64,000 bases of DNA from contig CAVPOC010000010.1 in NCBI GenBank assembly GCA_963706955.1, positions 224,001-288,000 on the forward strand, written 5' to 3'. A program made the translations under genes and the position numbers. A model generated the notes under the pieces. That model searched no databases and was not told the DNA's origin. It saw only the letters and a list, made by a program, of their open reading frames with translations. The stretch is from an uncultured Verrucomicrobiae bacterium (lineage in GTDB: Bacteria; Verrucomicrobiota; Verrucomicrobiia; Chthoniobacterales; Terrimicrobiaceae). Numbering within the stretch: position 1 is the stretch's first letter; each line of letters begins with the position of its first letter. This document shows, one piece after another, positions 36,774 to 55,665 of this stretch.

Positions 36774-37209
36774 CCTATTTCTCCTAATAGTGGTTTTGGC
36801 AAGAACTAGATCGATGCCAATTTGGGTGGACCCTTTTGACGTCGCTTTAAAGCCTCTGCCTTCATGATCAAGATGGGCCAAAGAAAGCAGCATCCACTTA
36901 GGAAACACGGCCCACGCCGATCTCATGGGCGCGTCCAGCGCCCACGCTCGGGTGGAACCAAAAGGTTAGCAATACGCCGAGCGCCACTCAGCACCTTTTA
37001 GAAAAAGCTTCCCACAAGCTGCACAACGGCTTTGTCTGGCATACATTCTCGTCGAGCATTTGTTTGTGGAGTCTTGGTTTTCTGCCAGCCACGGTCCCAC
37101 TTTGTCGCCCTTGCTAGTTACCTCGGATTCTCCGCGAGTTCGTCGAACCCTCTTGGCGAATATACGCACATGCTGATCCCCTTATTGCTCTTCGGTCGTT
37201 TGGTTTCCA

Positions 37210-38433
37210 CTAGCTCGCCCGTCTCTTTCTCGGTTCTCCGCTCCTTTTTCGTGTGTTCGAGGTTTGCACAGTAAGACCCGCTTCCGGTCCCCGCGTTTCC
37301 ACTTCCTCGAGATGTTCTTCAATAAAACTCTCCAGTTCCTCAGCGGCTTCGATCTTTGCCGCGAGGGCGCCTTCCTTTGCTCGGAACGCGCGGTGTTTCG
37401 CGATCGCCCTCTCGACGTCAAGCGGGCCGATAGCGAGATCCTTGCTGAGCGACTGAGTCAACTCGGTTCTGGCTGCCGCGCGTCGCGCTTTTAGGTCCCG
37501 GACAAAATTGCAGAACAGTAATCGCCGACGCGAAGCGAATACCCTGGCAACTGCCACGGCGATTTGTTGTCGGAATTCCTCCCTGGCTCTACGCGACTGT
37601 TCAAGCTGGATGCCACGCGTGGCCAACCGATTGATAATGTTCTCTGGACTAAAGCCTTGAAATTTGGGCTTGTCATTGCAAGTGCTGATCTTGACTTCGA
37701 TCGACAGATTCAAATCGTTCAATGCCTGCTCGACGGCTCTCTTTAGTGGCAGCGAAGCTCCTCCGCCGATATAAACATCGGCTTCATCCTCTTTACGGTC
37801 GAAACCGTGAAAGGCCACTCCGTAGCAGAAGGTCCGCGACGCAAGAGGCTGGAGCAGTGGAAAGCACGCCGGCTGAATATCTTCCGAAGTGATGTGCCAG
37901 CGGTCGAAGGCGTCTTTGTCCCGATCGCCGTCGCCTTTGCAGAGCCAGAATGATGCCGGGAAAGAGGCAGCCTTCAGTTCCGTGAAAACATTGGGCGCTT
38001 GTAGATCGGTGTGCGGCTCGATTTCTCCGCCATGGGGCGCAATGGCAAGGAAGTAAGCTTGTTTCCCATCGTCATCGGCCAGTTCAAAAAAGCTGAAAGT
38101 TCCCGACCGCGGCGCGTCATCGACGACTTTGGCTTGGACTATTCCTCCCATTGCTTCGGCCGTACCAAGCCGCTCCCGCCCCGTTTGGCCAGTGCGAACG
38201 ACATTGGCCAGCTCAGGATTGCCCAGATCGGCGTCGGGATTGGCCTGTTTCACCGTAAAGACGGCCACGAAATTAGGACTTTCGCTTCGCGTGACTCGAA
38301 CCTGTTGGCCGAGAGAACGGCCGATGGAATTCAACATGGCTGGGTCCGCCGAGCAACGTTCGGACTCATTCTTCAGATCGTCCTGCTCAGGGAGCTGAAG
38401 CTTCAATATCTGTGCGGAGTATTCAGATGACAT
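37210..38433 (-). CDS. Poly-gamma-glutamate hydrolase family (PghP/DUF867) protein with N- and C-terminal extensions
   Basis: IAPHGGEIEPHT, WHITS, VAFHGF, VYIGG, G.SPENIINR, GIQLEQ. Confidence 0.85.
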   Translation of the reverse strand: MSSEYSAQILKLQLPEQDDLKNESERCSADPAMLNSIGRSLGQQVRVTRSESPNFVAVFTVKQANPDADLGNPELANVVRTGQTGRERLGTAEAMGGIVQAKVVDDAPRSGTFSFFELADDDGKQAYFLAIAPHGGEIEPHTDLQAPNVFTELKAASFPASFWLCKGDGDRDKDAFDRWHITSEDIQPACFPLLQPLASRTFCYGVAFHGFDRKEDEADVYIGGGASLPLKRAVEQALNDLNLSIEVKISTCNDKPKFQGFSPENIINRLATRGIQLEQSRRAREEFRQQIAVAVARVFASRRRLLFCNFVRDLKARRAAARTELTQSLSKDLAIGPLDVERAIAKHRAFRAKEGALAAKIEAAEELESFIEEHLEEVETRGPEAGLTVQTSNTRKRSGEPRKRRAS

Positions 38434-38540
38434 AATGGTTTATTTTGCTGCTGGCGGAATAACAACCCGGCGGCGGACACGGCGGCAATCCTGCAGATGG
38501 CGGTTAAGGGGCAGCTGATTTCAGGCCGTAGGTGTCAGAT

Positions 38541-38741
38541 GGGGTCGGTCCTATAATTTACACATGCCGGCACGGGTTGCCCTGCATGCTCTGCTTAACT
38601 CCCTCAGGGAAGCGAGTAGGAAATCGATTGTCTTCGTTTGCCAATCGCTCCTGCAAACGCCAAATTCGGCTTCGCAGCGATCTCTCGGGTAGCCATCTAC
38701 TGCCTTCGGAGTATCCGGATGTATATTATAGGACTGACCCC
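38541..38741 (+). repeat. ~200-bp element copy A (ends GGGGTCGGTCCTATAAT...ATTATAGGACTGACCCC)
   Basis: Core aatcgattgtcttcgt...gccaaattcggcttcgcagcgatctc shared with copies B-G. Confidence 0.92.
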
Positions 38742-38752
38742 TTGCCCCCGCA

Positions 38753-39230
38753 CCTCGGGTGGCCTTCCCGCAGATGTGCACCTTTGCAATCAGGTTGGCG
38801 CGCAGCAGATCGGCCAGAATGCGGGCCATCCACCTTGTCGGTCTTGATCTGCGCCTCGACGATAATGCGGGTTCTTAAAATGGATTCGCTAACACGATGT
38901 CCTCTCGCGGCATCGCCTCTTCCAGAATCTCAAGCAACCAGTGCCAGTTCATGCAGGCCTCAAAGACTACCCGACACCCGGGCGCATCGCCGCACCAGCG
39001 ATACAAATTGCTCCGGGCAGAGGTGATCGATGCGCCCCCTTTCCAGAATCATTCCCTGCGCCTCGAGCACACAGAAGACACTGTAGCGCTTGTGATAGTC
39101 GATGCCGATGAAGCTCGACTCCGCTTTTAGGATAGGTTGTGTTCTCTCACACAATCTACACCCTTCGATTTTCTGCGGATTGCCAGACCATCCCACCCGC
39201 AGATCAAGCAACCATCAGCCTTTCATGTCG
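38753..39230 (-). mobile_element. IS110-family element, 5' half only, frameshifted
   Basis: FIGIDYHKRYSVFCV (DEDD RuvC-like N-terminus), remnants of the KTDKVDA motif; end GACATGAAAGGC abuts GGGGTCAGGC. Confidence 0.85.
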
Positions 39231-39289
39231 CCTGACCCCTTGCCTAACATGATATTACTTTCAGGCATCAAACACAGTTTCCAAGAGAA

Positions 39290-39700: not shown

Positions 39701-39750
39701 GAGCGGAGAAGGGGAAAATGAGCAGGCAAGTTCGTCAATTCATCTGCTTC

Positions 39751-39824
39751 GTTCAACACGTCATTGCAGCAGTCGGAAGAAACACTGGCGCGTTTCCCTC
39801 CGCCGCTGAATTCCAGCGTTAGTC
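39751..39824 (+). other. Integron attC recombination site
   Basis: R'' GTTCAAC, 5 nt, L'' ATTGCAGC, paired centre, L' GCTGAAT (pairs with L'' leaving one extra G), 6 nt, R' GTTAGTC; ATG follows 5 nt later. Confidence 0.8.
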
Positions 39825-39829
39825 ATTCT

Positions 39830-40330
39830 ATGAGCAATTCATGGGCACAACAACTACTCACAAAAACCTCATTATCCTCTTACTTGATTGAGGACATCCT
39901 TCGGGAGACAGGAGGGCTTGATCACGATCTCCAAAAGAAGCTTGCTCTGAAGATTGAAACCAAGGCCGACCTCAAAAATCTGCGGGAAGCAGCAAAACTC
40001 TTAAAGAACAACATCTCCCGCGAAACCTCAGAGACTTTGAAGGAGGAAATCCAGGAAATCGCTAAAGATTTCAAATGGTCAGGAACGACTCGTGGTAAAT
40101 ACATCATGACAATCAATAATTGGATACACACTTTTCATTCCGAATTTCGAGCCATGAAGGAATTTGAAGATGCCTTGATCGGTGGCCACACTGAGATGAT
40201 GGTCGTCTTCGTCTGTGGGAAGGTGAAATCAAATGATGTTCGAGAAAAATTACTGAAATATGTTCAGTCAAAGAATCCTCCATTCAAGATTCACGTTAAG
40301 TTAGACGTGATAGATAGGATGCATGACTAG
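39830..40330 (+). CDS. AT-rich hypothetical protein forming an integron gene cassette
   Basis: Starts just after GTTAGTC and ends in the complementary GACTA; lower GC than its neighbours. Confidence 0.75.
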   Translation: MSNSWAQQLLTKTSLSSYLIEDILRETGGLDHDLQKKLALKIETKADLKNLREAAKLLKNNISRETSETLKEEIQEIAKDFKWSGTTRGKYIMTINNWIHTFHSEFRAMKEFEDALIGGHTEMMVVFVCGKVKSNDVREKLLKYVQSKNPPFKIHVKLDVIDRMHD

Positions 40331-40515
40331 TCGGGTCCCCGTGACTAAGTATTAGTCAGCCACGGGTCCCACACCACCGGACGTGCGGGTCCGCATCCGG
40401 CGGTTCCGATCGGACTCGGGCTTTTGGCCCCGTAGTGAAGTTTGATCCACAATGTGCGCATGTCGGGAACTCCCTGCTGTTCCAGCCAGCTGTTGTTGAG
40501 CGCTTGTTGCAATTC
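40330..40515 (-). mobile_element. 3' fragment of a group IIC (attC-targeting) intron: maturase C-terminus, DV and DVI
   Basis: Minus strand LQQALNNSWLEQQGVPDMRTLWIKLHYG; DV GAACCGCCGGATGCGGACCCGCACGTCCGGTGGTGTGG with CGC triad; DVI hairpin; terminal AC joined to TAGTC. Confidence 0.88.
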
Positions 40516-40569
40516 AGTTGCTATCCGCTACGCATCCGGAGCAGCCAGCCAGCACGAGCGGATGCAGAT

Positions 40570-40765
40570 GGGGTCGGTCCCATAATTTACATGTTGCCGC
40601 GCGAACTAGCTTGCATGCTCTGCTTAACTTCCTCAGGGAAGCGAGTAGGAAATCGATTGTCTTCGTTGCCAATCGCTCCTGCAAACGCCAAATTCGGCTT
40701 CGCAGCGATCTCCCGGGTAGCATCTACTGCCATCGGAGTATAAGGATGTATATAGGACTGATCCC
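40570..40765 (+). repeat. ~200-bp element copy B
   Basis: ggggtcggtcccataatttac...tataggactgatccc, same core. Confidence 0.92.
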
Positions 40766-40813: not shown

Positions 40814-42748
40814 TTAGACGGCGTCCGGGAGGATCCCTTTGGTGAGCCGTTCGACTCCCTGCCTGGCGAAGTCACTTGGCGGATATACGTTCCGGGCCTT
40901 CAGGTACCAGGCGAGGCTGGAACCGGACTGGTCTTTCTGCTCCAGTTCCTCCGCTTGCCGGATCGCGTGGACGAAGTCCGCGGCTCTTGTGGTCAGGTTG
41001 GCTCGGACTTGGTTGAGCTTGTTATCGTTGGGATAGCTGCGGAAGGCCCTCTCGGCGCTTTCCCAAGCTCCAGCAAAGTCGCCGCGCTTTTCGATCTCCT
41101 GGGCCTGAATGAGCGCGGTCTCGATGACCTGCATGTCTTCAAGCACCTTGCGCAATTGCTCCTGCTTTTCCGGATGCATGGCGCTGGCGGCAATGAAACG
41201 CATCCTGTTCTCGTAAATTTGTCTGTAGTTCTTCTGGCTGAGAAGCTGATCAAAATCGACCATGGCCCGGGACTGGACATCGGCTTGAGAGAAGATGACT
41301 TTTGAGACCTCGGCCAGCGAGGGGTTGCGCGGCCAGATTTCGGTGGCGGCTTTCAACTCGGTTTCCAGCGTGGCCTTGTCGCCGCTTACCGCGGCATTGC
41401 GCGCCTTTGCGATGTGCATCGCGGAAATCTGCTTTGCGGTTTCTACGGCAGCCATCGGTTTGGAGGCATCGAAATCCTTGGCGGTTTCACCTAGTTGGGT
41501 CACCAACTTCTCCGCAAGGGCATAGTCTTTGACCTCAATCGCGCTGATGAGCTGGTTTGACTTGTGGACGAAAGCCAGCGCCTTCCGCTTGTCTTTCCGG
41601 TCGAGTGTCCGGACCTCCGGGAGGTATTCGCCAAGCATGAAGGTTTCCGCGAGCCGTTTCGTCGCGCTTTCGAGCTCGTTTTTCTCGAGCAGAAATTTGA
41701 AAGCCTGGATACCCTCACGCACGTCGCCCATGATTTCATTGGCCAGCGAATCGATTGTGCCCATGTTGGGCGGCAAGCCACTGGTCTTGGCGACCAGGCT
41801 CTTTGCATCTTCGCCGATGCGCAGCCGGCTATCACCATCAGCAAAGATATTGCGATAGAATCGGGTCCCAATGATGGCGTGCTCGAACCGCCTCTGAAGG
41901 AAATGCTGAACGATGAGGGATTGGAAGTCGATCTTCACCTGAAGCTCGGCGACCTCGCGCTTGAGCTGATTCGCCCGGATCAACGCATTGACCTCCGCGA
42001 GCCTCGTTACGATAGGCTGCATTTGCATGTCACGGCTGAGCTGCTGTGCTTGTTGCTGAGGGTTTGGCCCGCCCTCCTTCGATTTGTTGGAACCACCGCT
42101 GTCCATCTTGGTGCCCTCGGCGGTTAAACGCGCGTTCCACTCCAAGCGCTTCCTTTCATCCTCAAGGCTCTTGCTCGCCGCGTTCAGCCGGTCATTACTC
42201 TTTCGTGAAAGCCAGGCCGAGTAGACCTGGCTCGCGATGGAGTCGCAAAGGTGAGCGTCCTGTTCAAATTGGGAGGCCTTGGCGAGGCACTGGAAGGCTT
42301 GGTCTATGGACTGCAGCCTGACCCTGCCCGGCGCGAGCAAATCCCTAATTTCACCGAGGAGCGCCTGGTACTCATTATCGGATTCTGTCGTCGCCGCCGG
42401 AGCGTTGAGGTATTTCTCGAAGCGGGCCTGAAAGAGCGCGTTGTTGCTGACGTTCCAGCTCTTGCCGTCCCACATCGCTGTGTTGCTCCCGGGATCAAAA
42501 AACGGGATGCCCTTGCCAAGAAAGATTGAGCCGCCAGCAGGGGCGGCCGATTGCGATTGGCCACCCGAACCTTCAGCAGGCGCGGCCGGCGGGGCGGCTT
42601 GTGGCTGCTGGGGGAAGACTTGGATGGACTGCTGGGGTGCAGCCGCTTGAGGAGGAGCTTGCTGGACCGGATCTTGAGACGCGGGGGGATTTTGTTGGGC
42701 CGCCGCGAGCGCTAAGGAAAGGAGCCACGCAGGAAACGCGTATTTCAT
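40814..42748 (-). CDS. Secreted alpha-helical hypothetical protein with TPR-like C-terminus
   Basis: Signal peptide, Q/P/A-rich linker, coiled coil, TPR-like ends (WESAERAF..YP, WYLKA...YP). Confidence 0.75.
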   Translation of the reverse strand: MKYAFPAWLLSLALAAAQQNPPASQDPVQQAPPQAAAPQQSIQVFPQQPQAAPPAAPAEGSGGQSQSAAPAGGSIFLGKGIPFFDPGSNTAMWDGKSWNVSNNALFQARFEKYLNAPAATTESDNEYQALLGEIRDLLAPGRVRLQSIDQAFQCLAKASQFEQDAHLCDSIASQVYSAWLSRKSNDRLNAASKSLEDERKRLEWNARLTAEGTKMDSGGSNKSKEGGPNPQQQAQQLSRDMQMQPIVTRLAEVNALIRANQLKREVAELQVKIDFQSLIVQHFLQRRFEHAIIGTRFYRNIFADGDSRLRIGEDAKSLVAKTSGLPPNMGTIDSLANEIMGDVREGIQAFKFLLEKNELESATKRLAETFMLGEYLPEVRTLDRKDKRKALAFVHKSNQLISAIEVKDYALAEKLVTQLGETAKDFDASKPMAAVETAKQISAMHIAKARNAAVSGDKATLETELKAATEIWPRNPSLAEVSKVIFSQADVQSRAMVDFDQLLSQKNYRQIYENRMRFIAASAMHPEKQEQLRKVLEDMQVIETALIQAQEIEKRGDFAGAWESAERAFRSYPNDNKLNQVRANLTTRAADFVHAIRQAEELEQKDQSGSSLAWYLKARNVYPPSDFARQGVERLTKGILPDAV

Positions 42749-43143
42749 GATTTGGTCATGTCTTTAGTTCGCACTATGCCTTTGTCGCCGACTTCGAGCA
42801 GAAAAACAAATCGTTGGCCTCTCTGGATGTTGATGTGGCTGAAACTCGTTGTGACAAGGACAGGGATGACTTGCTTGTCGCCGTCGACACCTACAGCGAT
42901 CAGCCGCCCCTTGGTTGGTGACCATCCCAAGGAGTTGAGAACTTCGCCTTGGATCTTATAAACATTTCCTCTCAGACTATTTGCGTTTTCCAAGTAGGTC
43001 GCGACATCGAGTGGTGCCGCGGTCCGGAAGGACTGCAATGTCGTCGTGATAAGAAATCGTGAGCCAACAAATGCCGCCAGGATCAGGACAATGGCAACCA
43101 CAATTCCCATGGGGAGTCGGGATTTCTTACTACGCCGGGTCAC
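42745..43143 (-). CDS. Membrane-anchored hypothetical protein (possible OB-fold)
   Basis: Basic N-terminus, one TM helix, YLENANSLRGNVY; ATGA overlap with the downstream gene. Confidence 0.75.
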   Translation of the reverse strand: MTRRSKKSRLPMGIVVAIVLILAAFVGSRFLITTTLQSFRTAAPLDVATYLENANSLRGNVYKIQGEVLNSLGWSPTKGRLIAVGVDGDKQVIPVLVTTSFSHINIQRGQRFVFLLEVGDKGIVRTKDMTKS

Positions 43144-43347
43144 GCCTGCAGCTCCTAGGGAAAGTTAAATGGCCCGGGTTCTTCGCGTCATGCGAAGGTT
43201 CAACCAGAGATTCCGTACAAACGATTCGATCGGCTACGCCTACGGTATTGATCACGGCACAGCCGGCATGGAGAAGACTTGTCCGCCCTAGACGTAGAAT
43301 AGAGCCTTCGGGTTCCCTGGTCTGGTTTGCGAGCGAGGAATTCACAA

Positions 43348-43986
43348 TCATGGCGACGAGGGCAATTCAACTGCATTTGCGACCGATTGGATCCCTGAAT
43401 ATCCTGAGTGAGACAAAGTTTGGGGAAGTGGATTTCCCATGGTCGGCTGGGAAAACATGGGCCTGAAGGGTACATTGGAACTTTGACTGCTATCCCCGGG
43501 CTTTTTTGCGCTTTCCTTGGGAGGAAGCGTCTTTTCATAGGTCGCGATGAAAGGTTGAAATGCTGAGATTTCGGCCAACCGGATTTCCCCAGTGGACTTT
43601 TCACCGGATTTTGCCTCGTTCTTAGATTTCGGATCTTCTTTGAGCTCTTTAAGCGCCTCTTTCCGCTCGTACCAAAAACGTCCGTCCTTGGACCGATCTT
43701 TCTTAAACCCGTATTTTCGAAAGTCGGCATCACCGAGCTCGGCGATTGGAAGCCTTATAATTCCCGAATCATTCGAAACGCGGATCGTGTAATCATCAGT
43801 AATCTCAACGAATCCGAACTGTTTTGTTCCGTCTAGTTGCTTTACCGTGCGCTTTTCGGTCTTTGCAGAATTGCTTCCTTTTTTGGCTCCGCTTTGTGAG
43901 TTGATTGTTTGTGACTGGAGGGCGGGACAGAGCGCTATCGCGCAAGCCAGCGCAAGAAGCCAGGTGCGTGTATTCACGCTGTTCAT
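43348..43986 (-). CDS. Secreted hypothetical protein
   Basis: Signal peptide; co-oriented with the two genes downstream. Confidence 0.65.
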   Translation of the reverse strand: MNSVNTRTWLLALACAIALCPALQSQTINSQSGAKKGSNSAKTEKRTVKQLDGTKQFGFVEITDDYTIRVSNDSGIIRLPIAELGDADFRKYGFKKDRSKDGRFWYERKEALKELKEDPKSKNEAKSGEKSTGEIRLAEISAFQPFIATYEKTLPPKESAKKPGDSSQSSNVPFRPMFSQPTMGNPLPQTLSHSGYSGIQSVANAVELPSSP

Positions 43987-44378: not shown

Positions 44379-44703
44379 ACAAGAGGGGGTCAGCCATTTA
44401 ATATTGACTATCGTTTGCCGTCGGCATCGGACACCTGCGGTTTTATTACGAGCAGACATTCGACTGTTTGGTCGGGTCGTGCCGCCTCGCCGGGTCGATG
44501 TCGGCTTCGACAACGGGTGCTTCTAAGGCTGAAGCCGGACGGACACGCTTGGCATTCGTCACTAAATTATCAAAGCTCTGGATTGCCAAAGTCGCGCTGA
44601 AAGAAGAAGAGCGCAACGCGAAACCACGGCGTGGACCTAAACCTGCTTCTCGTTACAATCACGCGCGCAAGAATCCCAACACTAAATGACTGACCCCTCT
44701 TGT
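44379..44703. repeat. ~325-bp element with GGGGTCAG-containing inverted ends (second family)
   Basis: acaagagggggtcagccatttaatattg ... caacactaaatgactgacccctcttgt. Confidence 0.75.
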
Positions 44704-45275: not shown

Positions 45276-45481
45276 GGGGTCGGTCCTATAATTTACGCAT
45301 GCGGCCTGGCTTAGGCTTGCATGCTCTCCTCAACTTTCTCAGGAAAGCGAGTAGGAATCGATTGTCTTCGTCGCCATCGCTCCTGCAAACCTGCCAACGC
45401 CAAATTCGGCTTCGCAGCGATCTCCCGGGTAGCCATCTACTGCGATAGGAACATAAGGATGTATATTATAGGACTGACTCC
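45276..45481 (+). repeat. ~200-bp element copy C
   Basis: ggggtcggtcctataattta...attataggactgactcc. Confidence 0.92.
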
Positions 45482-45561: not shown

Positions 45562-45665
45562 GAGGTCGGTCCCGTAATGTAGACACACCGGTCTGCGTGC
45601 TCTCCTTGACTTCCTCAGGAAAGCGAGCGGGAGATCGATTGTCTTCGTTGCCGATCGCTCCTGCA
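45562..45665 (+). repeat. Partial element copy D (left half)
   Basis: gaggtcggtcccgtaatgta...ttcctcaggaaagcgag...atcgattgtcttcgttgccgatcgctcctgca; another ggggtca follows at 45676. Confidence 0.8.
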
Positions 45666-46064
45666 GGTCCGCGAGGGGTCAAGGAGTCGGTCAACAATTC
45701 TTGACGAAATACCATTTCGCTGCGTGCGTGGATTGCGGTCTCAACGGCCAGTTGCGGACTCCCTCGCTGTGTCCGAATCGCGGCAGGGCACGGACTCTGG
45801 AGGCTCACGGCTACAATTGGAGGTCACATATAAGGGGTCCACATCAGCGTCATGACACAGATCTTCGTGGAGGTGGCAATCGACTCTACCAGCTATATCA
45901 ACGTGCCATCCCTCTGCGATGGACAGAAAATCGCCGCAGCAGCAATCTGCGACTTTCCGCTGGAGAGCCTGAAAAGCCTTTTCAGTTTTCAAGGGGAAAC
46001 TTATTGTTACGACTTCGGCTCGTGTCCGTTTCCGCGCAGAGCGCGACTGGTAACAGGATTAAAG

Positions 46065-47354
46065 ATGCCCAAAAAAAACCATCTTGGACTCATTCGGCAA
46101 GGAGTAGATGCCTGGAATACGTGGCGTGAACGTGCTGCTGCGCAGCCCGATTTGAGCAGGGCAGACCTCACCAAAGCGGACCTCAGGGAAGCAGACCTCA
46201 GAAAAGCGAACCTCTACAAAGCAAACCTCAGCGAAGCGGACCTCAGCAAAGCGAACCTTGGCGGGGCGAACCTTGGCGAGGCGAATCTCGTGAGTGCGTA
46301 TCTCGGCGGGACGATTTTCACCAGTGCCGACCTCGGCCTTGCAGATTTCAGCGGGGCGTTTCTCAGCGGGGCGTTTCTCGGCGGGGCCGATGTCAGAGGG
46401 GCAACGCTCGTCAAGGCGGATCTTCAGCACGCGGTTCTCGACGGCGCCAACTTCGGGGGGGCGAACCTCAGCCAGGCCGACCTCAGCGTGGCGAAGTGCA
46501 GCCGGGCGAATTTCAGCGGGGCGAATCTCAGCGGGGCATTTCTCGGCCAGGCTTATTTCGGGCAGGCGAACCTCAGTGGGGCGGACTTTAGCGGGGCATA
46601 TCTCGGCGGGGCGGACCTTAGCTGGGCGAATCTCAGCGGGGCAAACTTCAGCGGGGCGAATCTCAGCGGGGCGATACTGGAAGGCGCCACCTTGATAGAA
46701 ACTAATCTGGAAAACGCGGATTTAAATGGCTGCCGAATTTATGGAATTTCCGCATGGAACATAAAAGCAAATCAAGAAACAAAGCAAACCTCTTTGATAA
46801 TTGCCCCGCGAGGCGAAGCCAGCATCACGGTTGACGATATCCAGGTCGCGCAATTCATCCATTTGATCCTAAAGTATGAAAACCTTAGAACGGTGCTTAA
46901 CACCGTAACAAAACGTGGCGTTTTGATCTTAGGCAGGTTTGGAGGTGGAGGTCTTCAGGTTCTGCGTGAGGTAGCAGAGGCTCTACGGCAGTGCGGCTAC
47001 TTGCCCATGATTTTTGATTTCGAAAGGCCGGAAGGTCGAAACTATACGGAGACTATTCGAACACTTGCCGGACTCGCCCGTTTTGTTGTGGTGGATCTCA
47101 GTGGACCTTCCGTGCCGCAAGAGCTTTACGCAACCGTGCCGCACTTGAAGATTCCTTTTGTGCCTATTCTCGAAAAAGGAAGGCGACCATACGCGATGTT
47201 CGTCGATCTCCTGGAGTATGAGTGGGTCCTAAAGCCAATAGTGGAATTCGATTCAACCTCGGCGCTCATTCAAGAGCTGCAGGACCAAATCGTGAGTCCA
47301 GCTGAGAAGCGAATTGAGATGAGACAGGCCAAACTCAAGGAACTGTTTGGTTAG
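46065..47354 (+). CDS. Pentapeptide-repeat protein with a C-terminal Rossmann-like (TIR/deoxyribosyltransferase-like) domain
   Basis: GVDAWNTWR cap, long A(N/D)LxX run, then VLILGRF, GYLPMIFDF, RFVVVDLS, SVPQEL, PFVPI. Confidence 0.85.
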   Translation: MPKKNHLGLIRQGVDAWNTWRERAAAQPDLSRADLTKADLREADLRKANLYKANLSEADLSKANLGGANLGEANLVSAYLGGTIFTSADLGLADFSGAFLSGAFLGGADVRGATLVKADLQHAVLDGANFGGANLSQADLSVAKCSRANFSGANLSGAFLGQAYFGQANLSGADFSGAYLGGADLSWANLSGANFSGANLSGAILEGATLIETNLENADLNGCRIYGISAWNIKANQETKQTSLIIAPRGEASITVDDIQVAQFIHLILKYENLRTVLNTVTKRGVLILGRFGGGGLQVLREVAEALRQCGYLPMIFDFERPEGRNYTETIRTLAGLARFVVVDLSGPSVPQELYATVPHLKIPFVPILEKGRRPYAMFVDLLEYEWVLKPIVEFDSTSALIQELQDQIVSPAEKRIEMRQAKLKELFG

Positions 47355-47512
47355 AGCGCTTCATCCTGTCTTGTTTATATAGCCCAGCCGCGATGGCCTC
47401 GATTCTGACGGGTAAAGAAGGGGTCAGGACTTGAATCTTGCACAGACCACAGGGGACAAATTCATCCGTTTCTTTTTCTCGTTGCTTATCTCACATGTGG
47501 GAGCAAGCAATA

Positions 47513-47661
47513 GGGGTCAGTGGGCAAAAATTGCATGTCAAGGGCCACGAGCGGGCGCTTAGAAGGTGGAGATGGTGGCGAGGAGCTTGCGGATTGAGTA
47601 TGCGGGCGCCTACTACCATGTGATGGCACGAGGAAACCGCTGTGAAAGGCGCACTGACCCC
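47513..47661 (+). mobile_element. Miniature remnant of a REP-associated tyrosine transposase (Y1/RAYT) between inverted GGGGTCAGTG / CACTGACCCC
   Basis: ATG 47572 encodes MVARSLRIEYAGAYYHVMARGNR, the typical Y1 N-terminus, then breaks at CACTGACCCC; extra ggggtcagg at 47420. Confidence 0.8.
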
Positions 47662-47750
47662 CAACTACCAGCTCGTTAAACCGAATGCATGGCTGAATTC
47701 ACGTATCCGATTGACCGACCTGGTCCGCGTGCCTTCACTATGGCTCGCTG

Positions 47751-49619
47751 GTGAGCTTACCGTATTTCAAATCGATCATCCCTCCTGCCGGTTTTACCCC
47801 TCTGACGCGCGCTGGTCTGGCGGGCTCAATCCCTGACCGGTTCAACGAGATTGCGGCGCACGATCCGCAGAAAATGGCCGTTTGCGACCATGTAAAATCA
47901 CTCACCTATCTGGAGCTGCATCGCCTGGTAAACAAGGCGGCGGCGATCATCCGGCGGACCGCGGAGCCCTCCGCCTTGGCGAAAGGTGTCGGCCTGATGT
48001 TTGAGCCCACCGTGGAAAGCGTTGTCGGCATTCTCGGTGTGCTGGCGAGCGGCAACTTCATTTGTCCGATCTCGCCGCGCGATCCTCCCGCAAGAGTCAA
48101 AATCCTCCTCGAGGATGCCGGGATCAACGTCATCCTGACGACCCGGGAAGCATTTCCGAATCGGCTGCAATCCGAGCTACACTCCGAGCACGTTGTCTTC
48201 GTCGACGAACTCGCGGAAAACGATGTTGAAACCGTCATTCCGGCGATCCTGAATCCCCATCAACTCGCCGCCATCCTGTATACCTCGGGCTCAACCGACA
48301 TACCCAAGGGAGTGACTCATACCCACAAAACGTTAATGCAGATGGTCAGGATCAAAGGGAATACGCTGGGTATTTCCCCTTCCGATATGATTGCCGGATT
48401 ATCCACCTTCACCTTCGGCAGCTATTATTGGAACGTTTTCGCAACCGTGGTGACTGGTGCCACGCTTCACCTTTACGACTTTTACCGTTTCCCGTTTGAA
48501 AACCTGAAAAGCTGGCTGATCGACCGGCGCATCACTCACTTTCACTGCACTCCGACCACCTTGCGTCAGTTCCTGGCTGCGCTAGACGAACCTACGGTTC
48601 TTGCGGACCTGCGGCTCGTGTCGCTCGGCGGGGAAACCGTCTATCCAAACGACGTCTATCAGTTTCAAAGAAAGCTTTCACAAGCAACGGCGCTCTGCAC
48701 CACAGGCGCGACGATCGAGACCTGGTTTTATGGCTGCACGTTTTTTCAGACACCATTCCCGGACGGAGTTGATGAAATCCCGATGGGGTTCATCCATCCG
48801 GAATGCCGTGTCGAGGTGCGGGATGACCAGGGGGGCAAACTTCCGCCCGGTCAAACGGGGGAAATTACCGTCAGGAGCGAATGCCTTTCTCCGGGCTATT
48901 GGAAGCGCGCAGAGCTCAATGCCGCGAAGTATGTCGTCGGTGAGGACCAGAAGCGTTACTTCCATTCGGGCGATTTGGGAACCTTTAGCCCGGATGGACT
49001 GCTCTATCAGAAAGGCCGATCCGACTTTCAAGTCAAGATCCGGGGGATGCGGATCGACCTCGCCGGTGTCGAAGCAGTTTTACACGATCACCCCGGAGTC
49101 AAACAAGCCGTGGTCGTGGGGCGAGCCCGGAAGGACAACCAGATGGAATTGGTCGCCTATATCGTCGCAACTGGCCATCGCACCACTGGCCGAAGCGAAA
49201 TCTACCAATTCCTGGCTACGAAGTTACCGCCCGACCAAATTCCCGCGCGCCTCGTTTTTCTCGAGTCCTTTCCCCTCACCCACACGCACAAGGTGGACCG
49301 AAATGCGCTTCCTGATCCGGACGAAATCGAAATAACAAGAGATCTGCAATGGATCGCACCACGGAACGATGTCGAGGCCCTTCTGCACGGAATTTGGGCC
49401 GAGATTCTGGGCCACGAGAACTTCGGCGTCACTGAGCCGTTCTTGCAACTCGGAGGCGACTCCCTTGGGGCCATGCGCGTTCGCAATCATATTGAAGCGG
49501 AATTCGGGGTGTGGATCCCGTTGAGTGACCTCTTAACGGCGGCGACTATCGAATCGCTCGCCGACGTGGTCCAGTCTCTAAGCACTGAGGAAGTGACAAC
49601 CCGCGCCCGGACCACTTAA
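47751..49619 (+). CDS. Stand-alone NRPS-like adenylation-thiolation didomain
   Basis: LTYLEL (A1), YTSGSTDIPKG (A3), FHSGDL (A7), GRSDFQVKIRGMRI (A8), HKVDR (A10), carrier FLQLGGDSL. Confidence 0.92.
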   Translation: MSLPYFKSIIPPAGFTPLTRAGLAGSIPDRFNEIAAHDPQKMAVCDHVKSLTYLELHRLVNKAAAIIRRTAEPSALAKGVGLMFEPTVESVVGILGVLASGNFICPISPRDPPARVKILLEDAGINVILTTREAFPNRLQSELHSEHVVFVDELAENDVETVIPAILNPHQLAAILYTSGSTDIPKGVTHTHKTLMQMVRIKGNTLGISPSDMIAGLSTFTFGSYYWNVFATVVTGATLHLYDFYRFPFENLKSWLIDRRITHFHCTPTTLRQFLAALDEPTVLADLRLVSLGGETVYPNDVYQFQRKLSQATALCTTGATIETWFYGCTFFQTPFPDGVDEIPMGFIHPECRVEVRDDQGGKLPPGQTGEITVRSECLSPGYWKRAELNAAKYVVGEDQKRYFHSGDLGTFSPDGLLYQKGRSDFQVKIRGMRIDLAGVEAVLHDHPGVKQAVVVGRARKDNQMELVAYIVATGHRTTGRSEIYQFLATKLPPDQIPARLVFLESFPLTHTHKVDRNALPDPDEIEITRDLQWIAPRNDVEALLHGIWAEILGHENFGVTEPFLQLGGDSLGAMRVRNHIEAEFGVWIPLSDLLTAATIESLADVVQSLSTEEVTTRARTT

Positions 49620-49658
49620 AGCAGGACACTCGTCCGTAAAGGCCAGCAATCAGCGAGC

Positions 49659-50768
49659 ATGAAAGTTCAATATTTTAACAACCTCAGAGAACTGAAGCAG
49701 ATTGACCCAGCAACCATAACGGGGGTCGATCCGGTGAGCGCCAAATTCAGCTTCAGGACCAACAGCTACTACAACTCCCTCATTGACTGGGACGATCCGG
49801 ATGACCCGCTCAAAAAACTGATCATGCCGGATCTCCAGGAGTTGAATGATCATCTGGCGTCCGACTCCCTAAACGAAATCAAATACCACGACATTCCAGG
49901 GATCCAATACAAGTACGGCGATCAAATCAACCTGTTGGTCACGAGCACCTGCGCCGCTATCTGCCGCTATTGTTTTAGGAAAAATCTGCTCCATCAAGGG
50001 AATACCATCACCGCAACGAACATGTCGAAGGTCCGGGAATGGCTGGAAGCGCATCCTAACGTGAAGAGCGTCGTCGTGACCGGAGGCGAACCGCTCATTC
50101 TTTCGACTTCGAAGCTGAACTCGATCCTGACGACCCTCCAGGAAGTCGAATCGGTCGAACACATCCGGATCTCGGCAAAGATCTGCTCGTTTAATCCCTA
50201 TCGAATTCTGGATGATCCCGGCTTGCTAAAGATGTTTCGGGAACGATGCCAGGCGCGCCCTGGGAATACCATTTGGATCGGAAACCACTTCTCTCACCCG
50301 AACGAATTCACCGACTCATCGCGTGAAGCGGTAAGACTGCTGAAGGCGACCGGAGTCGGCATGTTGAATAACGTCCCAATCGTCAGGGGTATCAACGCGG
50401 ACCCGGACATCCTCGCCTCGGTCTTCAGCGGAGTTTACAAAATGGGCATTTCAAACTACTACGCCTGCGTCCTCACTGAAACCGAAGGCAATAAGGCGCT
50501 CACCTTGCCCCTGGAGGAGATCTCGCGGATCTACCTCGCCGCGCGCAAAAAGGTTCCCGGCTCCGCCAAAACTGCCAGGCTAACCATCAAAAGGGAACGA
50601 GGAAACGTATCGGTATTGGGCGTTAGCGAAGGAAGAATCTACTTCGAGCTGATTCACTCTGAATACAAGGATCAGGAGGGAAAGATATTCTCGTTTAAAA
50701 GTAATCCGGACGCTTACTTCCTCGAAGATTATGACGAAGTCAAAGGGGGCGCCTGTGACTGGATCTAA
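49659..50768 (+). CDS. KamA (lysine 2,3-aminomutase)-family radical SAM protein, divergent
   Basis: YYNSLIDW..P.DPL, QYKY, CAAICRYCFRK, TGGEPL, HFSHPNE, RGIN. Confidence 0.88.
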   Translation: MKVQYFNNLRELKQIDPATITGVDPVSAKFSFRTNSYYNSLIDWDDPDDPLKKLIMPDLQELNDHLASDSLNEIKYHDIPGIQYKYGDQINLLVTSTCAAICRYCFRKNLLHQGNTITATNMSKVREWLEAHPNVKSVVVTGGEPLILSTSKLNSILTTLQEVESVEHIRISAKICSFNPYRILDDPGLLKMFRERCQARPGNTIWIGNHFSHPNEFTDSSREAVRLLKATGVGMLNNVPIVRGINADPDILASVFSGVYKMGISNYYACVLTETEGNKALTLPLEEISRIYLAARKKVPGSAKTARLTIKRERGNVSVLGVSEGRIYFELIHSEYKDQEGKIFSFKSNPDAYFLEDYDEVKGGACDWI

Positions 50769-50877
50769 AACGGCAAGGGATTGCCACGCCGTAACGATAA
50801 TCGCCGAAGGTGTGCCACCCAGCATTCGGATCGAGTTCGGGCCCGTTCTCACATCACGTGCCGCACGCGGCCGAGAC

Positions 50878-51064
50878 AGGATCGATCCTATAATTTGCAC
50901 ATGCGGCCTGGCTTAGCTTGCATGCTCTGCTTAACCTCCTCAGAAAATCGATTGTCTTCGTCGCCATCGCTCCTGCAAACGCCAAAAGTCGGCTTGGCAG
51001 CGATCTCTCGGGTAGCCATCTACTGCCATCGGAGTATAAGGATGTATATTATAGGACTGACCCC
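50878..51064 (+). repeat. ~200-bp element copy E
   Basis: aggatcgatcctataatttg...attataggactgacccc. Confidence 0.9.
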
Positions 51065-51105
51065 TTTTGCTCTGGCTGACCCCTTTTGCTCTGGCCCTTT
51101 GCTGG
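51057..51105 (+). repeat. Tandem 19-bp duplication of the element's right end
   Basis: ctgaccccttttgctctgg twice, plus a partial third unit. Confidence 0.85.
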
Positions 51106-51171: not shown

Positions 51172-51978
51172 TCAAATATTGTTTTCCCAGGCTTCCTTTT
51201 GGTCTGTCTTTATAAACTCCTCGAATGCCTTGGGCACAACATTGCGGAAGAAGCCGGTATCGGCGGGGACGATCGACACCATCGCCTCAATCACTTCCTT
51301 TGGATCATGTCGTTCGTCCTCCTCCCCAAAAAAGGCAAAATAGTTCTCGATGTCTGCTCGCTTGATGAAGTTCCTGCTGTCATCCTGCCAGTGAAGGGCG
51401 GACTCGCACATCGTCTCATTGAACCCCGTCAGGAAGGCCTTCGGATTGATGGTCTGTACCTGGATCTGGAATGGCTTCAGTTCTCGCTGAAGCGACTCGG
51501 CGATGCATTGCAGAGCGTGCTTGCTCGCGGCATAGGGGGCTAGACCCGGAGCCGGCGTGAGCAGCCCCGCGACCGAACTAGTAAAGACCACTTTACCGGG
51601 CCGTTTCTGGTCGATCCACTTCCGGATGAACTTTTGGGCCAGTTCCAGAGGCGCGAAAACGTTGCTCTCAAACGTCCGGCGGACGAGATCGACCGGAATT
51701 TCACAGACTGGACCGTTTTCGCCGATTCCGGCGTTGCTGAAAAGAATGTCAATGTCCCATTTCAGCGCGTTGGCCACGTCGTAGGGATGAAGGAGCTCTA
51801 ACTTCTCGACGCGGAGATTGTTCAGCCCGAGCGATTTTACTTTCTGTCGCAGGCTGGTCACTTGCGGCCAGATTTGAACGCCAGCAATAACATCATGTCC
51901 GTTCTGGGCGAGACCGATCGCAGTGCCCTCGCCAAAGCCCGAGCCTGCTCCAGTAATCAAAATTCGTTTCTTGCTCAT
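51172..51978 (-). CDS. Short-chain dehydrogenase/reductase
   Basis: ITGAGSGFG, SNAG, SS, YAASK. Confidence 0.93.
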   Translation of the reverse strand: MSKKRILITGAGSGFGEGTAIGLAQNGHDVIAGVQIWPQVTSLRQKVKSLGLNNLRVEKLELLHPYDVANALKWDIDILFSNAGIGENGPVCEIPVDLVRRTFESNVFAPLELAQKFIRKWIDQKRPGKVVFTSSVAGLLTPAPGLAPYAASKHALQCIAESLQRELKPFQIQVQTINPKAFLTGFNETMCESALHWQDDSRNFIKRADIENYFAFFGEEDERHDPKEVIEAMVSIVPADTGFFRNVVPKAFEEFIKTDQKEAWENNI

Positions 51979-52253
51979 ATGACTTGCTTTTTTGTTTATG
52001 TCATAGGCTTCAACTCACGAAACGAATAAATCGTACTCCAAAAACGGGAACGGGCGAAGAGGTCTGAATTTTACCGCTTCCCACACGCGCCGCTTCTGAC
52101 ACCAGACGTAATCGCCTGTGAGATTGATATTCCAGAATCTGGCGCGCTCATCGCGCAAGCCGGGGCCACTTTTGTCACTCTGCGCCCATGGAAATACAAG
52201 CTTTCGGCTTCAGACTCCAGGCCACGCGCTGGAGAGTCAAAAGCGATTTCCTA

Positions 52254-52619
52254 TCAGTCAGGTCCAGTGCTCTTACCGCCTCCGACTTCATGGTGGCCTA
52301 CCTGTCTTAACTCCCAGTTGATCGAGAAACTGATCACGGTTCGGATCGCGACGATCGCGCCGAGGATCGCGAGGTCAGCGAGTGTTGGTGTCAGCACCGT
52401 GTGGATGATATCGGCCGCGATCAGGAACTCGAGGCCGAGCAGGAGATAATACCCGAGGTGATGCCGCAGGTCCTCACGTTCGACAAGAATATTTCGTCCG
52501 CTGAGGCTCGCCCATTCAAGACGCAGGAGGCGCAACACGCCGAGAAGAACGCCCCACAGAATTACAGTTAGGCCGATCACACCGATCACCAGACTGATGT
52601 GCTCGACAAGCATATGCAT
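52254..52619 (-). CDS. DUF1622-type membrane protein
   Basis: R..LG.YLLLGLEFLIAADII.T...PT..DL.ILG.IV.IRT. Confidence 0.88.
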   Translation of the reverse strand: MHMLVEHISLVIGVIGLTVILWGVLLGVLRLLRLEWASLSGRNILVEREDLRHHLGYYLLLGLEFLIAADIIHTVLTPTLADLAILGAIVAIRTVISFSINWELRQVGHHEVGGGKSTGPD

Positions 52620-53286
52620 CGTTAATCCGCTTACATGCCAATCGCATCAGAAGCGATATTTTTTTAACGGAACACACCCCGGCGCTTCGCGCCACCCCGT
52701 CTCGACAAACCGAAAGTCCAACCGAACGATATTCACGTGTTTGCCAACCAGCCTGGGAATACTGGAAAGTCGGAGCGCCAGTTAATGGAAGCAAGGCGGA
52801 CATTCGCGCGGAGGTGGAGGCTTTGACACTCCCATCGTTCCAGCCCGCCTGGAAAGTCGGTTCGTCGTTTGACGCGCGGAAGCCCAGGATGACTGCAGAA
52901 GGCCTGACGCGTCAAACCCTGCCAGCAGAGACGGGAGGGGGGTTCTACGGCGAGGCAATACGCGGCCGGAGCGCGCCAACTCTTACAGAACCCGCATCCT
53001 CTAACCAGAGTCGAGCATTGATAAAATCTACTCTAAACTGCTTGTGTGACAGCTCAACAGGTCTAGAGGAACTGCTCCGGGAACGGCCGGAACGTCTGGC
53101 CAAACCGAACGCGCCGCCGCAGGGCGCTTCGGTAAAGGAGCGCGAACTGTCGCGATTGTAATGCTCGCCATTGAAAAAGGAGCTGGGTGACAACGCAAAA
53201 GATGCAGGCTAGCTTGGAGACTAATATCTAGTCCACGTCAATCACATGGCGCTTAACGGCCCCTGTGCAACGTTAAGAATACAAGC

Positions 53287-53493
53287 ATGATTATCCTTTT
53301 CTTCTTAGAAATAGTGATAGCAGGTGCTTTCCTTGGCTCGCTCATGCTTGCTCTATTGAAAAACCTTCAGCCCGAACGCACCGGATTGATCAATCGGTGG
53401 CATTACTTTTTTTGGCATTTTTGGATCCCGAGACTCATTCCCTGGACTCTGGTAATTCTTATTCTCTTCTTTGCCAGAATTCTCATGCTATGA
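53287..53493 (+). CDS. Small AT-rich two-TM protein, cassette-like
   Basis: Hydrophobic 68 aa; preceded by GTTAAGAAT and followed by near-complement ATTCTTATC. Confidence 0.5.
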   Translation: MIILFFLEIVIAGAFLGSLMLALLKNLQPERTGLINRWHYFFWHFWIPRLIPWTLVILILFFARILML

Positions 53494-53680
53494 AGATTCT
53501 TATCGTTTTGACATTCACGCCAATTCGCTTGCCTTGCCGGCAGGCGATTCTCGCCGCCGAAACCCGGGACGGGCCGCCAAGTTGGGCGACAGACAGGTGG
53601 TTCCTCCAGCCCCTACACTCGCCGTGCAGATGTCGCTGGGATCAGATCTTGACCTATGACATTTCCGCGTGCAGTGGGAT

Positions 53681-53874
53681 GGGGTCGGTCCTATAATTTA
53701 CACATGCCGGCACGGGTTGGCTTGCATGCTCTCCTTAACTTCCTCAGGGAAGCGAGTAGGAAATCGATTGTCTTCGTTGCCAATCGCTCCTGCAAACGCC
53801 AAATTCGGCTTCGCAGCGATCTCTCGGGTAGCCATCTACTGCTATCGGCGCATAAGGATGTATAATATAGGACT
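53681..53874 (+). repeat. ~200-bp element copy F (right end clipped)
   Basis: ggggtcggtcctataatttacacatgccggcacgggttg...tataggact; very similar to copy A. Confidence 0.92.
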
Positions 53875-54039
53875 TCTCTGAAAGAATGTGAAAGTGGCTG
53901 TCAAGGGCGAATTTCCAAGCGAAGTGCTAGCTAAGGGACGTGCGAAGACTAAGGGCGAAAAAATAGCATATTCTGCTCCAGCAGAGGCTAGGGATCAGCC
54001 TGGGGGACTGCTGCCCCGATGCAACAAATGGCTGCGCTG

Positions 54040-54529
54040 GGCATCTCTTTGAGGTCTCGGGTGGCCTTCCCGCAGATGTGCACCTTTGCAATCAGGTTGG
54101 CGCGCAGCAGATCGGCCAGAATGCGGGCATCCACCTTGTCGGTCTTGATCTGCGCCTCGGCGATAATGCGGGTCTTAAATGGATTGGCTAACACGATGTC
54201 CTCTCGCGGCATCACCTCTTCCAGAATCTCAATCAACCAGTGCCAGTTCATGCAGGCCTCAAAGACCACCCGACATCCAGGCCATCGTCGCACCAGCCAA
54301 ACAAATTGCTCCGGGCAGAGGTGATCGATGCGTCCCCTTTCCAGAATCATTCCCTGCGCGTCGAGCACACAGAAGACACTCTAGCGCTTGTGATAGTCGA
54401 TGCCGATGAAGCTCAACTCCGCTTTGAGGATAGGTTGTGTTTTCATCACACAATCTACACCCCTCGATTTTATGCAGCTCCCCAGACCATCCCGCCCGCA
54501 GATTAAGCTTCTATCAGCCTTTCATGTCG
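54040..54529 (-). mobile_element. IS110-family element, 5' half only, with internal stop (TAG at 54383-54381)
   Basis: ATG 54446 MKTQPILKAELSFIGIDYHKR*, VVFEACMNW, LANP, IKTDKVDARILA; end abuts GGGGTCAGGC. Confidence 0.9.
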
Positions 54530-54555
54530 CCTGACCCCCGTGCTGCCGCCACGAG

Positions 54556-55356
54556 CTACGGTCGCTCCGACAGCACCAGATTGCGGATGTGCGAAGCGAC
54601 GCCAACTATATCCGGGAAGATACTCAACTCATTGAGGCTGGAAAACTGTAAGAACTCTAGCGCACCCCTTCTCGCCGACTTAGGTAGCAGCACTTTCCGA
54701 ACACAGCTGGGACACTGTTCTTCCAGGCTACGTTCGTCATCACCATGGATCGTGAACATTCCTCGCTGAGCGAATAGTCTTCCGTTTTGAAACGGCGGAT
54801 CTAGAGCGATCGGCAAGCGCGGAGCAAACGGCTCCTTCTTCCAGTATACGGAGCGGTAAGAGAAGCTCGGGTCGTCTGCATGCTTGAGTTGCGGCGTGCC
54901 AGTGGCTAGACGATTGAGCGCCATCGGGTCGAGGACATACACAGCAGCCTCGGATGGCTCTGTGCCCAAGGCGAAGAACACAGCCACGCCGAGCGTCTCG
55001 GTCCAATCCAAGAGTCGGGTCGGGATACCGTAGTGCTGCATGTCGAACACGGTTTCCCAGTCGGACTCGCGCGCCTTCAGCAAGTAGGTAGCGGCCTGAC
55101 GATACTTGTGAAACAGCTCCTGCTCTTTGCTTAGACCTCGGGATGTCCGAAGCAAGGACGGGAATAGTGAATACGTACTATGCCAGTGCCCTCGGTACCA
55201 TACTGTCGCCGGGTTCTTGAGCTGTGCACGGGCGTTCCTGATTCCGGAAAGGAAGACATCCCATGATTCACCTGCTTCTGAGCTACTGCGGTTGTCTCGC
55301 CGCCCGGACCTATCCATCGATCGTGGCATTTTGCTGCTCCCTGTTTCTGACAACAT
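54556..55356 (-). CDS. FRG-domain protein
   Basis: WYRGH, LFPSLLR, MQHYGIPTRLLDWT, VAVFFA, RLFAQRGMFT. Confidence 0.9.
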   Translation of the reverse strand: MLSETGSSKMPRSMDRSGRRDNRSSSEAGESWDVFLSGIRNARAQLKNPATVWYRGHWHSTYSLFPSLLRTSRGLSKEQELFHKYRQAATYLLKARESDWETVFDMQHYGIPTRLLDWTETLGVAVFFALGTEPSEAAVYVLDPMALNRLATGTPQLKHADDPSFSYRSVYWKKEPFAPRLPIALDPPFQNGRLFAQRGMFTIHGDDERSLEEQCPSCVRKVLLPKSARRGALEFLQFSSLNELSIFPDIVGVASHIRNLVLSERP

Positions 55357-55466
55357 AACGCCTAACAAGCAAAATGGAAGAGGTCCGCCTGGGAAATTCC
55401 GACCATTAACGCAGCGATGGCCGCTGTGAGGTTTTTCTTTGGGGGGAAATAAGCCGGAGTGCAGAT

Positions 55467-55665
55467 GGGGTCGGTCCTATAATTTACATGTCGCCGCGCG
55501 CATTAGCTTTGCATGCCCTTCTTTACCTCTTCACGGGGAGAACTAGGCGATCGAATACCTTCGTTGCTAATCACTCCTTCAAACGCCAGGCTCGGCATGG
55601 TAGCGATCTCACCACGGCCATCTAATTTCATCGCAGAATAGAGGTGAAATTATGGGGCTGACCCC
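55467..55665 (+). repeat. ~200-bp element copy G (most diverged)
   Basis: ggggtcggtcctataatttac...ttatggggctgacccc with recognisable core. Confidence 0.8.

Follow-up and report, generated by a model that had tools for sequence, protein, structure and literature searches.

Co-oriented repeats in an accessory region of a Terrimicrobiaceae genome as non-coding TIRtron MITEs, and how their array may have been built

A stretch of 64,000 bp from the genome of an uncultured Verrucomicrobiae bacterium of the Terrimicrobiaceae (assembly GCA_963706955.1, contig CAVPOC010000010.1, positions 224,001 to 288,000), hereafter called the window, carries seven co-oriented repeats of about 200 bp within positions 37173 to 55665, with unrelated genes between them. 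Judged from their sequence, these repeats are almost certainly non-coding miniature inverted-repeat transposable elements (MITEs) of a TIRtron and not REP hairpins. TIRtrons consist of a Y1/HUH transposase gene (TIRYT) between terminal inverted repeats (TIRs) with the consensus GGGGWSAS, according to the accessible text of Di Nocera et al. 2013 (PMC3733652). For the array as a whole we lean towards an origin by local, orientation-keeping end-joining, which would have been carried out by a TIRYT that is no longer present in it. The window lies on contig C10 of this genome (G000), its own coordinates are used for features in it, and the strand sign of the MITE copies is the sense of the parent transposase gene.

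All seven copies are on the minus strand. Copy 1 (38541..38741), copy 2 (40570..40765), copy 5 (50878..51064) and copy 7 (55467..55665, the most diverged) were placed by BLAST and by alignment to the parent element, and copy 4 (45562..45665), which is a right-end half alone, by BLAST. The 12-nt outer flank of copy 3 (45276..45481) equals the flank of copy 1 at 11/12 positions, and the TIR of copy 6 (53681..53874) is split by an IS110 element at a CT dinucleotide. The left end of the MITE is GGGGTCAG and the right end is GGGGTCGG, a single change from it; the full-length window copies are 73-94% identical to copy 1. An earlier reading of the window made from its letters alone (the sequence-only reading) had described seven co-oriented copies with inverted ends of about 17 bp, with a CAGAT/GGAT-type flank, now seen on the left side of most copies, and without target-site duplications or further copies in the window, and it was right on each of these points.

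The whole-genome BLASTN that it had proposed was run with six copies as queries against the assembly (4.16 Mb, 15 contigs, 92.5% complete). Twelve copies were found in two clusters only, seven in the window and five on contig C8 at 150.5-167.5 kb, so that 12/12 are confined to about 35 kb of the 4.16 Mb. Each cluster is fully co-oriented (BLAST strand + in 12/12), the copies are not scattered, and their clustering and orientation are non-random as had been claimed; a target duplication was found in 0/12 of them. The end sequence GGGGTCAG occurs 11 times in 19 kb of the window region against 0.34 expected and 12 times in 27 kb of C8 against 0.48 expected, i.e. about 30 times the density elsewhere (Poisson p of about 1e-13 per region, with region limits drawn after the clusters had been seen). 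No Rfam family matched at the gathering threshold across the window, so the MITE is no known RNA family, and tRNAs were absent from both the window and the 40 kb surrounding the C8 cluster. A promoter-supplying role of the MITE is unsupported, because no sigma-70-like promoter was found in copy 1. When metagenomes were searched with a 25-mer from inside the MITE, a single locus, L039, was matched, on a contig of a near-identical strain. At least half of the sequence words of the locus are present in 17 public runs.

The identity of the repeats came from a DNA search of 61 genomes, in which 6/18 same-genus genomes and 0/42 others were matched. The matches in the genus are the ends of intact elements of about 990 bp, in which a 304-aa gene lies between inverted repeats of 17-24 bp starting GGGGTCAGTCCTA. 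The parent element is 991 bp long, has GGGGTCAG at both ends and encodes a PF01797 (Y1_Tnp) protein with NHYH at 58 and YIHLNP at 118, which are the HUH motif and the class-2 Y---NP motif; N58, H59, H61 and Y118-P123 are invariant in 36 aligned relatives. Its profile matches E. coli TnpA-REP (PDB 4ER8, E=2.7e-4), and it scores 54.8 bits against the NF047646 cut-off of 80. The MITE is the first ~97 bp of the parent (TIR, leader and about 13 codons) fused to its last ~99 bp, with a GCGAT-type microhomology where the two parts join; the start codon is lost, its ATG having become ATC. Copy c3 aligns over its full length to parent bases 1-103 (80/98) and 893-991 (72/97), and both arms outscore the best of 100 shuffles in 11/11 copies tested. 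The suspected link to a Y1/HUH enzyme of the RAYT family was thus confirmed, since the intact gene with exactly these ends, which the sequence-only reading had advised looking for, is present in the genus (for instance L009:624-1538, minus strand). Its notion of a REP-driven or att-like site was not upheld, the repeats being MITEs of a TIR-flanked element; identity as a REP hairpin was rejected since the TIR element has no GTAG foot and only 12 copies in the genome.

Relatives of the parent TIRYT were found in 103/251 genomes of the order (a tally that includes G248). In 48 related loci both TIRs are present, with 71-100% identity per position across 24 nt. In this genome the cognate TIRYT gene is left as fragments alone, on C5. 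A single TIRYT is intact in this genome (349 aa, gene at C8:542119-543165, locus L001 at C8:542108-544150). It belongs to another family with its own TIRs, and has 36% identity to the MITE parent and the first 10 nt of the TIR in common with it.

MITE subfamilies are common to the two clusters, and a tree of 11 rows, with the partial copy left out, rejected the window copies as a single clade (AU p=0.003); therefore the two regions either received insertions repeatedly or traded copies. Same-direction TIRtron groups also exist in relatives: G017 has three within 14 kb and G003 has two within 8 kb. For a second TIR family, alignment-based calls gave 7/8 multi-element clusters in G004 and G011 in which all polarised ends were concordant. 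A by-eye polarity of this family in the present genome was dropped, as the alignment test gave one weak call and four undecided. Two second-family clusters of G004 lie about 40 kb apart on one replichore and point in opposite directions, therefore orientation is set locally. As far as these sequences tell, each cluster and each family would have its own direction, a pattern that suggests local copying or insertion next to an end already in place.

Footprints at the element ends were taken from 78 related loci (the best 80 of 219 matches; kin are not independent). A target duplication of at least 3 nt was seen in 0/48 parents and one of 2 nt in 3/48. Position -2 outside the TIR is A at 52/55 left and 51/56 right ends. 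Within an element, the 5 nt outside one end are similar, in inverted sense, to those outside the other, more so than in shuffled pairings, and they form a family-specific motif. Many ends also carry a stutter, a tandem repeat of the outer flank together with the TIR tip, at 17/55 left and 11/56 right ends against 85/3120 random windows; a stricter test gave 15/106 ends against 146/20000, with a unit of 8-13 flank and 0-7 TIR bases in 14/15. In the window a stutter adjoins MITE copy 5 (51065..51100). Foreign homology begins 10-12 bp outside the TIR at three junctions, which are both starts of a duplicated ASCH unit on C8 and the non-ribosomal peptide synthetase (NRPS) module of the window, for which the distance to the TIR at 47661 is 12 bp. 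Stutter was observed at TIRtron ends across Verrucomicrobia and Planctomycetes (L040-L117, L131-L151), at about 10-20x background. A diverged direct repeat of about 85 bp was seen on both sides of an intact TIRtron in G014 (L009/L016), tens of bases from the TIRs, and a DUF2270 homologue adjoins a deleted TIRtron in G015 (L018).

TnpA-REP cuts 5' or 3' of its site and joins the free 3'-OH to the tyrosine-linked end (PMC8266576, accessible text). By analogy with this enzyme, a TIRYT would nick at the TIR or immediately beyond it and re-join the ends close by. The cognate TIRYT, now lost, would have done the moving: it would cleave DNA single strands at the GGGGTCAG ends or slightly beyond them, and the cut ends would be re-joined near existing ends on the same strand, giving one-direction, IS26-like stacks. 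Junctions would form about 8-13 nt outside the TIR or within its first 7 nt, each event might add, delete or trap adjacent DNA, and ordinary island DNA such as integron cassettes, an intron or operons would end up between direct repeats. Elements truncated at MITEs (a group II intron and the end of a fifth TIR family) may fit end-adjacent deletion as well as capture, and gene capture by the array is possible. In this genome the array is today probably mostly inert.

Several points weigh against local end-joining by a TIRYT. One G004 cluster had discordant, weak polarity calls, and 19/52 second-family ends (all regions) were not polarisable. Extra TIRYT matches of any family within 10 kb were on the same strand in 12 cases and on the opposite strand in two (7 and 2 loci of 78), and TIRYT pairs within 20 kb were four same and one opposite among 150 listed of 211 matches; the second count overlaps partly with the first, and the G203 pair was excluded from it as pieces of one gene. 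An empty site was found for 0/96 elements with flanks, in a small search space, so no single insertion event could be read. TIRYT relatives have a conserved C-terminal extension of about 180 aa, in which 0/36 members match a Pfam helix-turn-helix (HTH) at E<=0.1, while subclass 2.1 enzymes are described with a C-terminal helix-turn-helix extension (Bac_DnaA_C, HTH_23, HTH_28) in the accessible text of PMC6006769. No biochemistry of TIRYT or subclass 2.1 was found in the literature searched, from which subscription papers were mostly absent. Finally, a replication-strand bias also fits the MITE family, and accounts for part of the orientation, not all of it.

That bias is the core of one alternative, in which ordinary MITE insertions with a lagging-strand preference survived only in dispensable islands, so that clustering would come from purifying selection and orientation from replication. 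By contig skew, all 12 copies have one direction with respect to the fork, since both clusters lie on contigs whose + strand has G<C (14/15 and 51/55 windows of 20 kb); 31/45 related TIRYT loci have positive skew in the gene sense (p=0.016, kin not independent), and IS200/IS605 enzymes use the lagging-strand template (PMC6006769, accessible text). This explanation is nevertheless improbable. Many other accessory regions of the genome are without a MITE copy, and a clean insertion was not seen among the 96 elements. The second family points both ways with respect to skew (four clusters one way and two the other, one of the latter on a single 20-kb window), two of its G004 clusters (C7) are opposite on one replichore, and fourth-family fragments run opposite to the MITEs in both clusters. 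Still less probable is that one or two founder MITEs were multiplied by host recombination alone, through tandem duplication, gene conversion and exchange between islands. In its favour, this 92.5% complete assembly has no intact cognate enzyme, direct repeats are a product of unequal recombination, and copies 1 and 3 share their 12-nt flank. But the shared sequence stops at or within about 12 nt of the TIRs and not at random cargo points, the cargo between copies is unrelated, and the stutter at intact-element ends in both phyla points to enzyme action at the ends.

A third possibility shares its chemistry with the end-joining favoured here and goes further, to true capture and stacking: cargo with one MITE or end would be excised as a circle and inserted directly beside a resident end, driven by the HUH enzyme. 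We consider it rather unlikely, and it is likewise doubtful that TIRYTs are gene-stacking machines which nick outside GGGGTCAG ends, release cargo plus one end and insert it directly beside resident ends. If they were, integron-like arrays would arise at fixed spots without integrase, attC or DDE enzyme, the MITEs would be portable sites and the stutter would be the footprint of the cycle. A unit of ASCH, NYN and MITE (2,093 bp) occurs twice on C8 at 98.9%; both copies stop precisely at the TIR tip, and one has its start about 10 bp after the TIR of another family. In G011 a right end is repeated over about 75 bp at 2.9 kb distance, in direct orientation and with unique DNA between; two directly repeated left ends enclose a DUF2270 gene at the C8 TIRYT locus (L001); and at the very site upstream of rfbB that holds the C8 cluster here, G004 carries a TIR nest whose cargo differs, whereas seven further genus members carry none. 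In two sequencing runs a contig links NYN to the MITE CAGAT flank through another short spacer, a weak link of one low-depth contig each with a 30-letter side. On the other hand, the C8 duplicate could equally have arisen by one-ended transposition or recombination, spacing and junction distances are irregular in the array, and five of five cargo pieces traced elsewhere (NRPS+KamA, SDR, DUF1622, NYN and part of ASCH) have no TIR at their ends. Logan contigs of four runs covered the window at 36800-56500 (of run X1 about half was used, its uncovered bins not counted), and those of four runs covered 3.2 kb of C8. No module-skipping joint between two TIRs was present in either set, in which unitigs break in repeats and would not prove absence: the window runs gave nine joints, none from TIR to TIR across a module, and 44370-44713 and 50767-50882 show other sequence beside the TIR in one run. 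Two new MITE flanks from other runs had no match in this genome at up to 3 mismatches.

The sequence-only reading had proposed an integron-like array built at the motif, and had advised checking whether modules are gained or lost exactly there. No clean case of a module gained or lost between two TIRs was seen in the eight contig sets or in the empty-site search, and cargo is not stably tied to the TIR. The genome has seven tyrosine recombinases (PF00589), none of them on C10 and the nearest about 55 kb from the C8 cluster, hence none within 50 kb of either cluster. An integron reading was therefore rejected, with no integrase near and cargo homologues without TIR, the exception being the intragenomic C8 duplicate.

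Besides the MITEs, ends of four further TIR families were identified at 44386-44697, 47420, 47513-47661 and 53638, each with a counterpart in the C8 cluster. The second family is represented by an element of 312 bp with GGGGTCAGCCATTTA ends and uncertain polarity (44386..44697), which has intact parents in G011. A third-family end (47415..47486) is 97% identical to C8:156997-157068. The fourth family left a mini-element of 149 bp with the first 22 TIRYT codons (47513..47661, plus strand, opposite to the MITEs), the intact parent of which is in G001, and a truncated fifth-family end (53638..53675), like C8:156816, directly abuts MITE copy 6. The C8 nest (C8:147000-178000; L005, L006), with five MITEs and ends of the same four other families, lies upstream of rfbB.

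Many of the additional GGG(G/A)TCA-type motifs that had been taken as junctions are such family ends or TIR halves split by IS110. Motifs 37173 and 45676 were traced to no element, and the GGGRTCA 7-mer has 32 matches in the window where chance would give 17, so that about 5 of the 19 inside the array can be chance. The claim that broken elements end at or near the motif held for the intron, the fifth-family end and the IS110 beside copy 1, which is full-length in L039.

IS110 elements inserted at the AG/CT dinucleotide of GGGGTCAG in 5/5 left and 3/3 right junctions. In the window the 5' third of such a TIR-targeting IS110 lies at 38754..39231 on the minus strand (full-length in L039), with the outer TIR half (GGGGTCAG) at its left end at 39232..39239 on the same strand. 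A second IS110, internally deleted and with CT at both ends, lies at 53873..54532 (minus strand), and the outer half of the copy 6 TIR follows at 54531..54538 (minus strand); motif 53990 falls within the right-end segment of this IS110. A further IS110 locus of this type was found in this genome at C5:174808-176350. In the near-identical strain contig L039 the full-length IS110 sits inside the TIR of copy 1, while in the window this TIR is whole and is joined to the IS110 interior 12 nt further out, which is one strain-level breakpoint near the motif. The joining flank is the one that matches the flank of copy 3 (chance 0/5000 at a score of at least 10; 45 pairs examined). The TIRs serve as IS110 landing pads, as REPs do; IS621 targets REPs with a CT core (PMC11208160, accessible text), a likeness to the insertion of IS110 into TIRs at CT.

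The cargo assignments of the sequence-only reading held in Pfam and NCBIfam profile searches. Between copies 1 and 2, a RidA-family gene (PF01042, 39290..39700, plus strand) is followed by a degenerate attC-like site (39751..39824, plus strand), a cassette-like hypothetical gene without Pfam or NCBIfam match (39830..40330, plus strand) and the 3' end of a group II intron (RF00029, 40330..40560, minus strand), which is cut off by MITE copy 2. The end boxes of the attC-like site could be read by eye, in agreement with the proposed attC cassette, but folding gave no single long hairpin. The intron 3' end at 40330-40405 scores 38.4 bits, just below the Rfam cut-off of 40, and its homologue continues in G017. 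Attachment-site-like boxes of this kind were noted at three places (39751-40560, 38440-38520 and 55350-55420), and the intron end is at the stop of the cassette-like gene, where an inverse core would begin, a position which we take to fit attC-targeting introns. The boxes and the intron end would be ordinary island debris, namely integron cassettes without an integrase.

Further along are three exported hypotheticals of 644, 132 and 212 aa (40814..43986, minus strand), with paralogues on C1 and C4, and a pentapeptide-repeat protein (45852..47354, plus strand), possibly a defence or signalling protein. For the latter, earlier called pentapeptide/TIR-like, the pentapeptide repeats were confirmed (PF00805), whereas the C-terminal domain matched no Pfam or NCBIfam family. 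A stand-alone NRPS (adenylation-PCP) with a KamA-like radical SAM gene (47673..50794, plus strand; Pfam and NCBIfam matches) may belong to a beta-amino-acid pathway; a 92% copy of the pair exists in another species without TIRs (G017, C13:54483-57604), near a tRNA-like sequence noticed by eye. SDR and DUF1622 genes (51172..52619, minus strand) have homologues elsewhere without TIRs at their ends, and an FRG-domain gene (PF08867) lies at 54556..55368 on the minus strand. At 52160-52260 there is a separate repeat of about 100 bp with seven matches in the genome and dozens across the genus, and at 59835-63465 a Ser/Thr kinase-ATPase gene in two overlapping frames, one of at least eight paralogues in the genome.

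The locus provides a matched enzyme and minimal substrate, and the footprints predict the cut sites, so TIRYT function is directly testable. If stacking is targeted, HUH enzymes would have their own equivalent of IS26 arrays, and soil bacteria one more way of assembling accessory islands; if it is not, the array is a well-resolved MITE graveyard. The use of TIRs by IS110 at CT is a small side result.

The class of element is known. According to the accessible texts, TIR repeat families are moderately abundant and "organized in dimers or clusters" (PMC3733652), TIRtrons are equated with TnpA-Y1 subclass 2.1, present in about 15% of strains in a 2018 survey (Quentin et al. 2018, PMC6006769), and TIRYT is RAYT group 1 of Bertels et al. 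2017 (PMC5581495). The present elements agree with TIRtrons in the Y1/HUH gene, the TIRs with GGGGWSAS and the lack of REP hairpins, and differ in internal-deletion MITEs, one-direction cargo arrays, end stutter and the proposed mechanism, which are absent from the accessible accounts in PMC3733652, PMC6006769 and PMC5581495. The literature searched contained no account of how the MITE derives from a TIRtron, of end stutter or of family-specific stacks that keep one direction at shared chromosomal spots. Nor were co-oriented TIRtron or TIR-MITE arrays or TIRYT biochemistry found there, supplements and most subscription papers being outside this search; Figure 9 and the Additional files of PMC3733652 list TIRs and may include this family.

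REP/BIME (REPIN) systems with RAYT/TnpA-REP use the same enzyme superfamily, and REPs too are IS110 targets (PMC11208160, accessible text). They differ from the present repeats, which have no GTAG-footed hairpin, are 200-bp TIR elements derived from a transposase gene and number 12 in two clusters, not hundreds (accessible texts of PMC6006769 and PMC8266576). Prochlorosin arrays, in which full and truncated subclass 2.1 tnpA-REP genes are interspersed, share the enzyme subclass, the fixed orientation and the variable gene clusters (bioRxiv 10.1101/2020.03.09.984088), but no inverted repeats were detected there, the authors later saw no strong evidence of a causal link, and the cargo is one gene family. 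DDE-mobilised MITEs differ by the target-site duplication, which is absent here as expected for an HUH enzyme.

Integrons and CALINs have co-oriented repeats separating unrelated accessory genes, and real attC-like cassettes are among the trapped DNA here. In contrast to them, the array has no integrase nearby, its repeats are not attC, its modules are multi-gene and in both orientations, and cargo homologues occur without the repeat. The term integron-like thus fits the layout, and an IS26-like stack seems the closer analogy. IS26 arrays have direct copies between unique segments, no target duplication and a preference for insertion beside an existing copy (Harmer, Moran and Hall 2014, PMC4196232, accessible text); the layout and the lack of target duplication are observed here, and a preference for adjacent insertion would be shared if the proposed end-joining is right. 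IS26, however, uses a DDE transposase with intact genes needed in both copies, whereas here the enzyme is of the HUH/Y1 type, the copies are non-coding and the junctions are imprecise.

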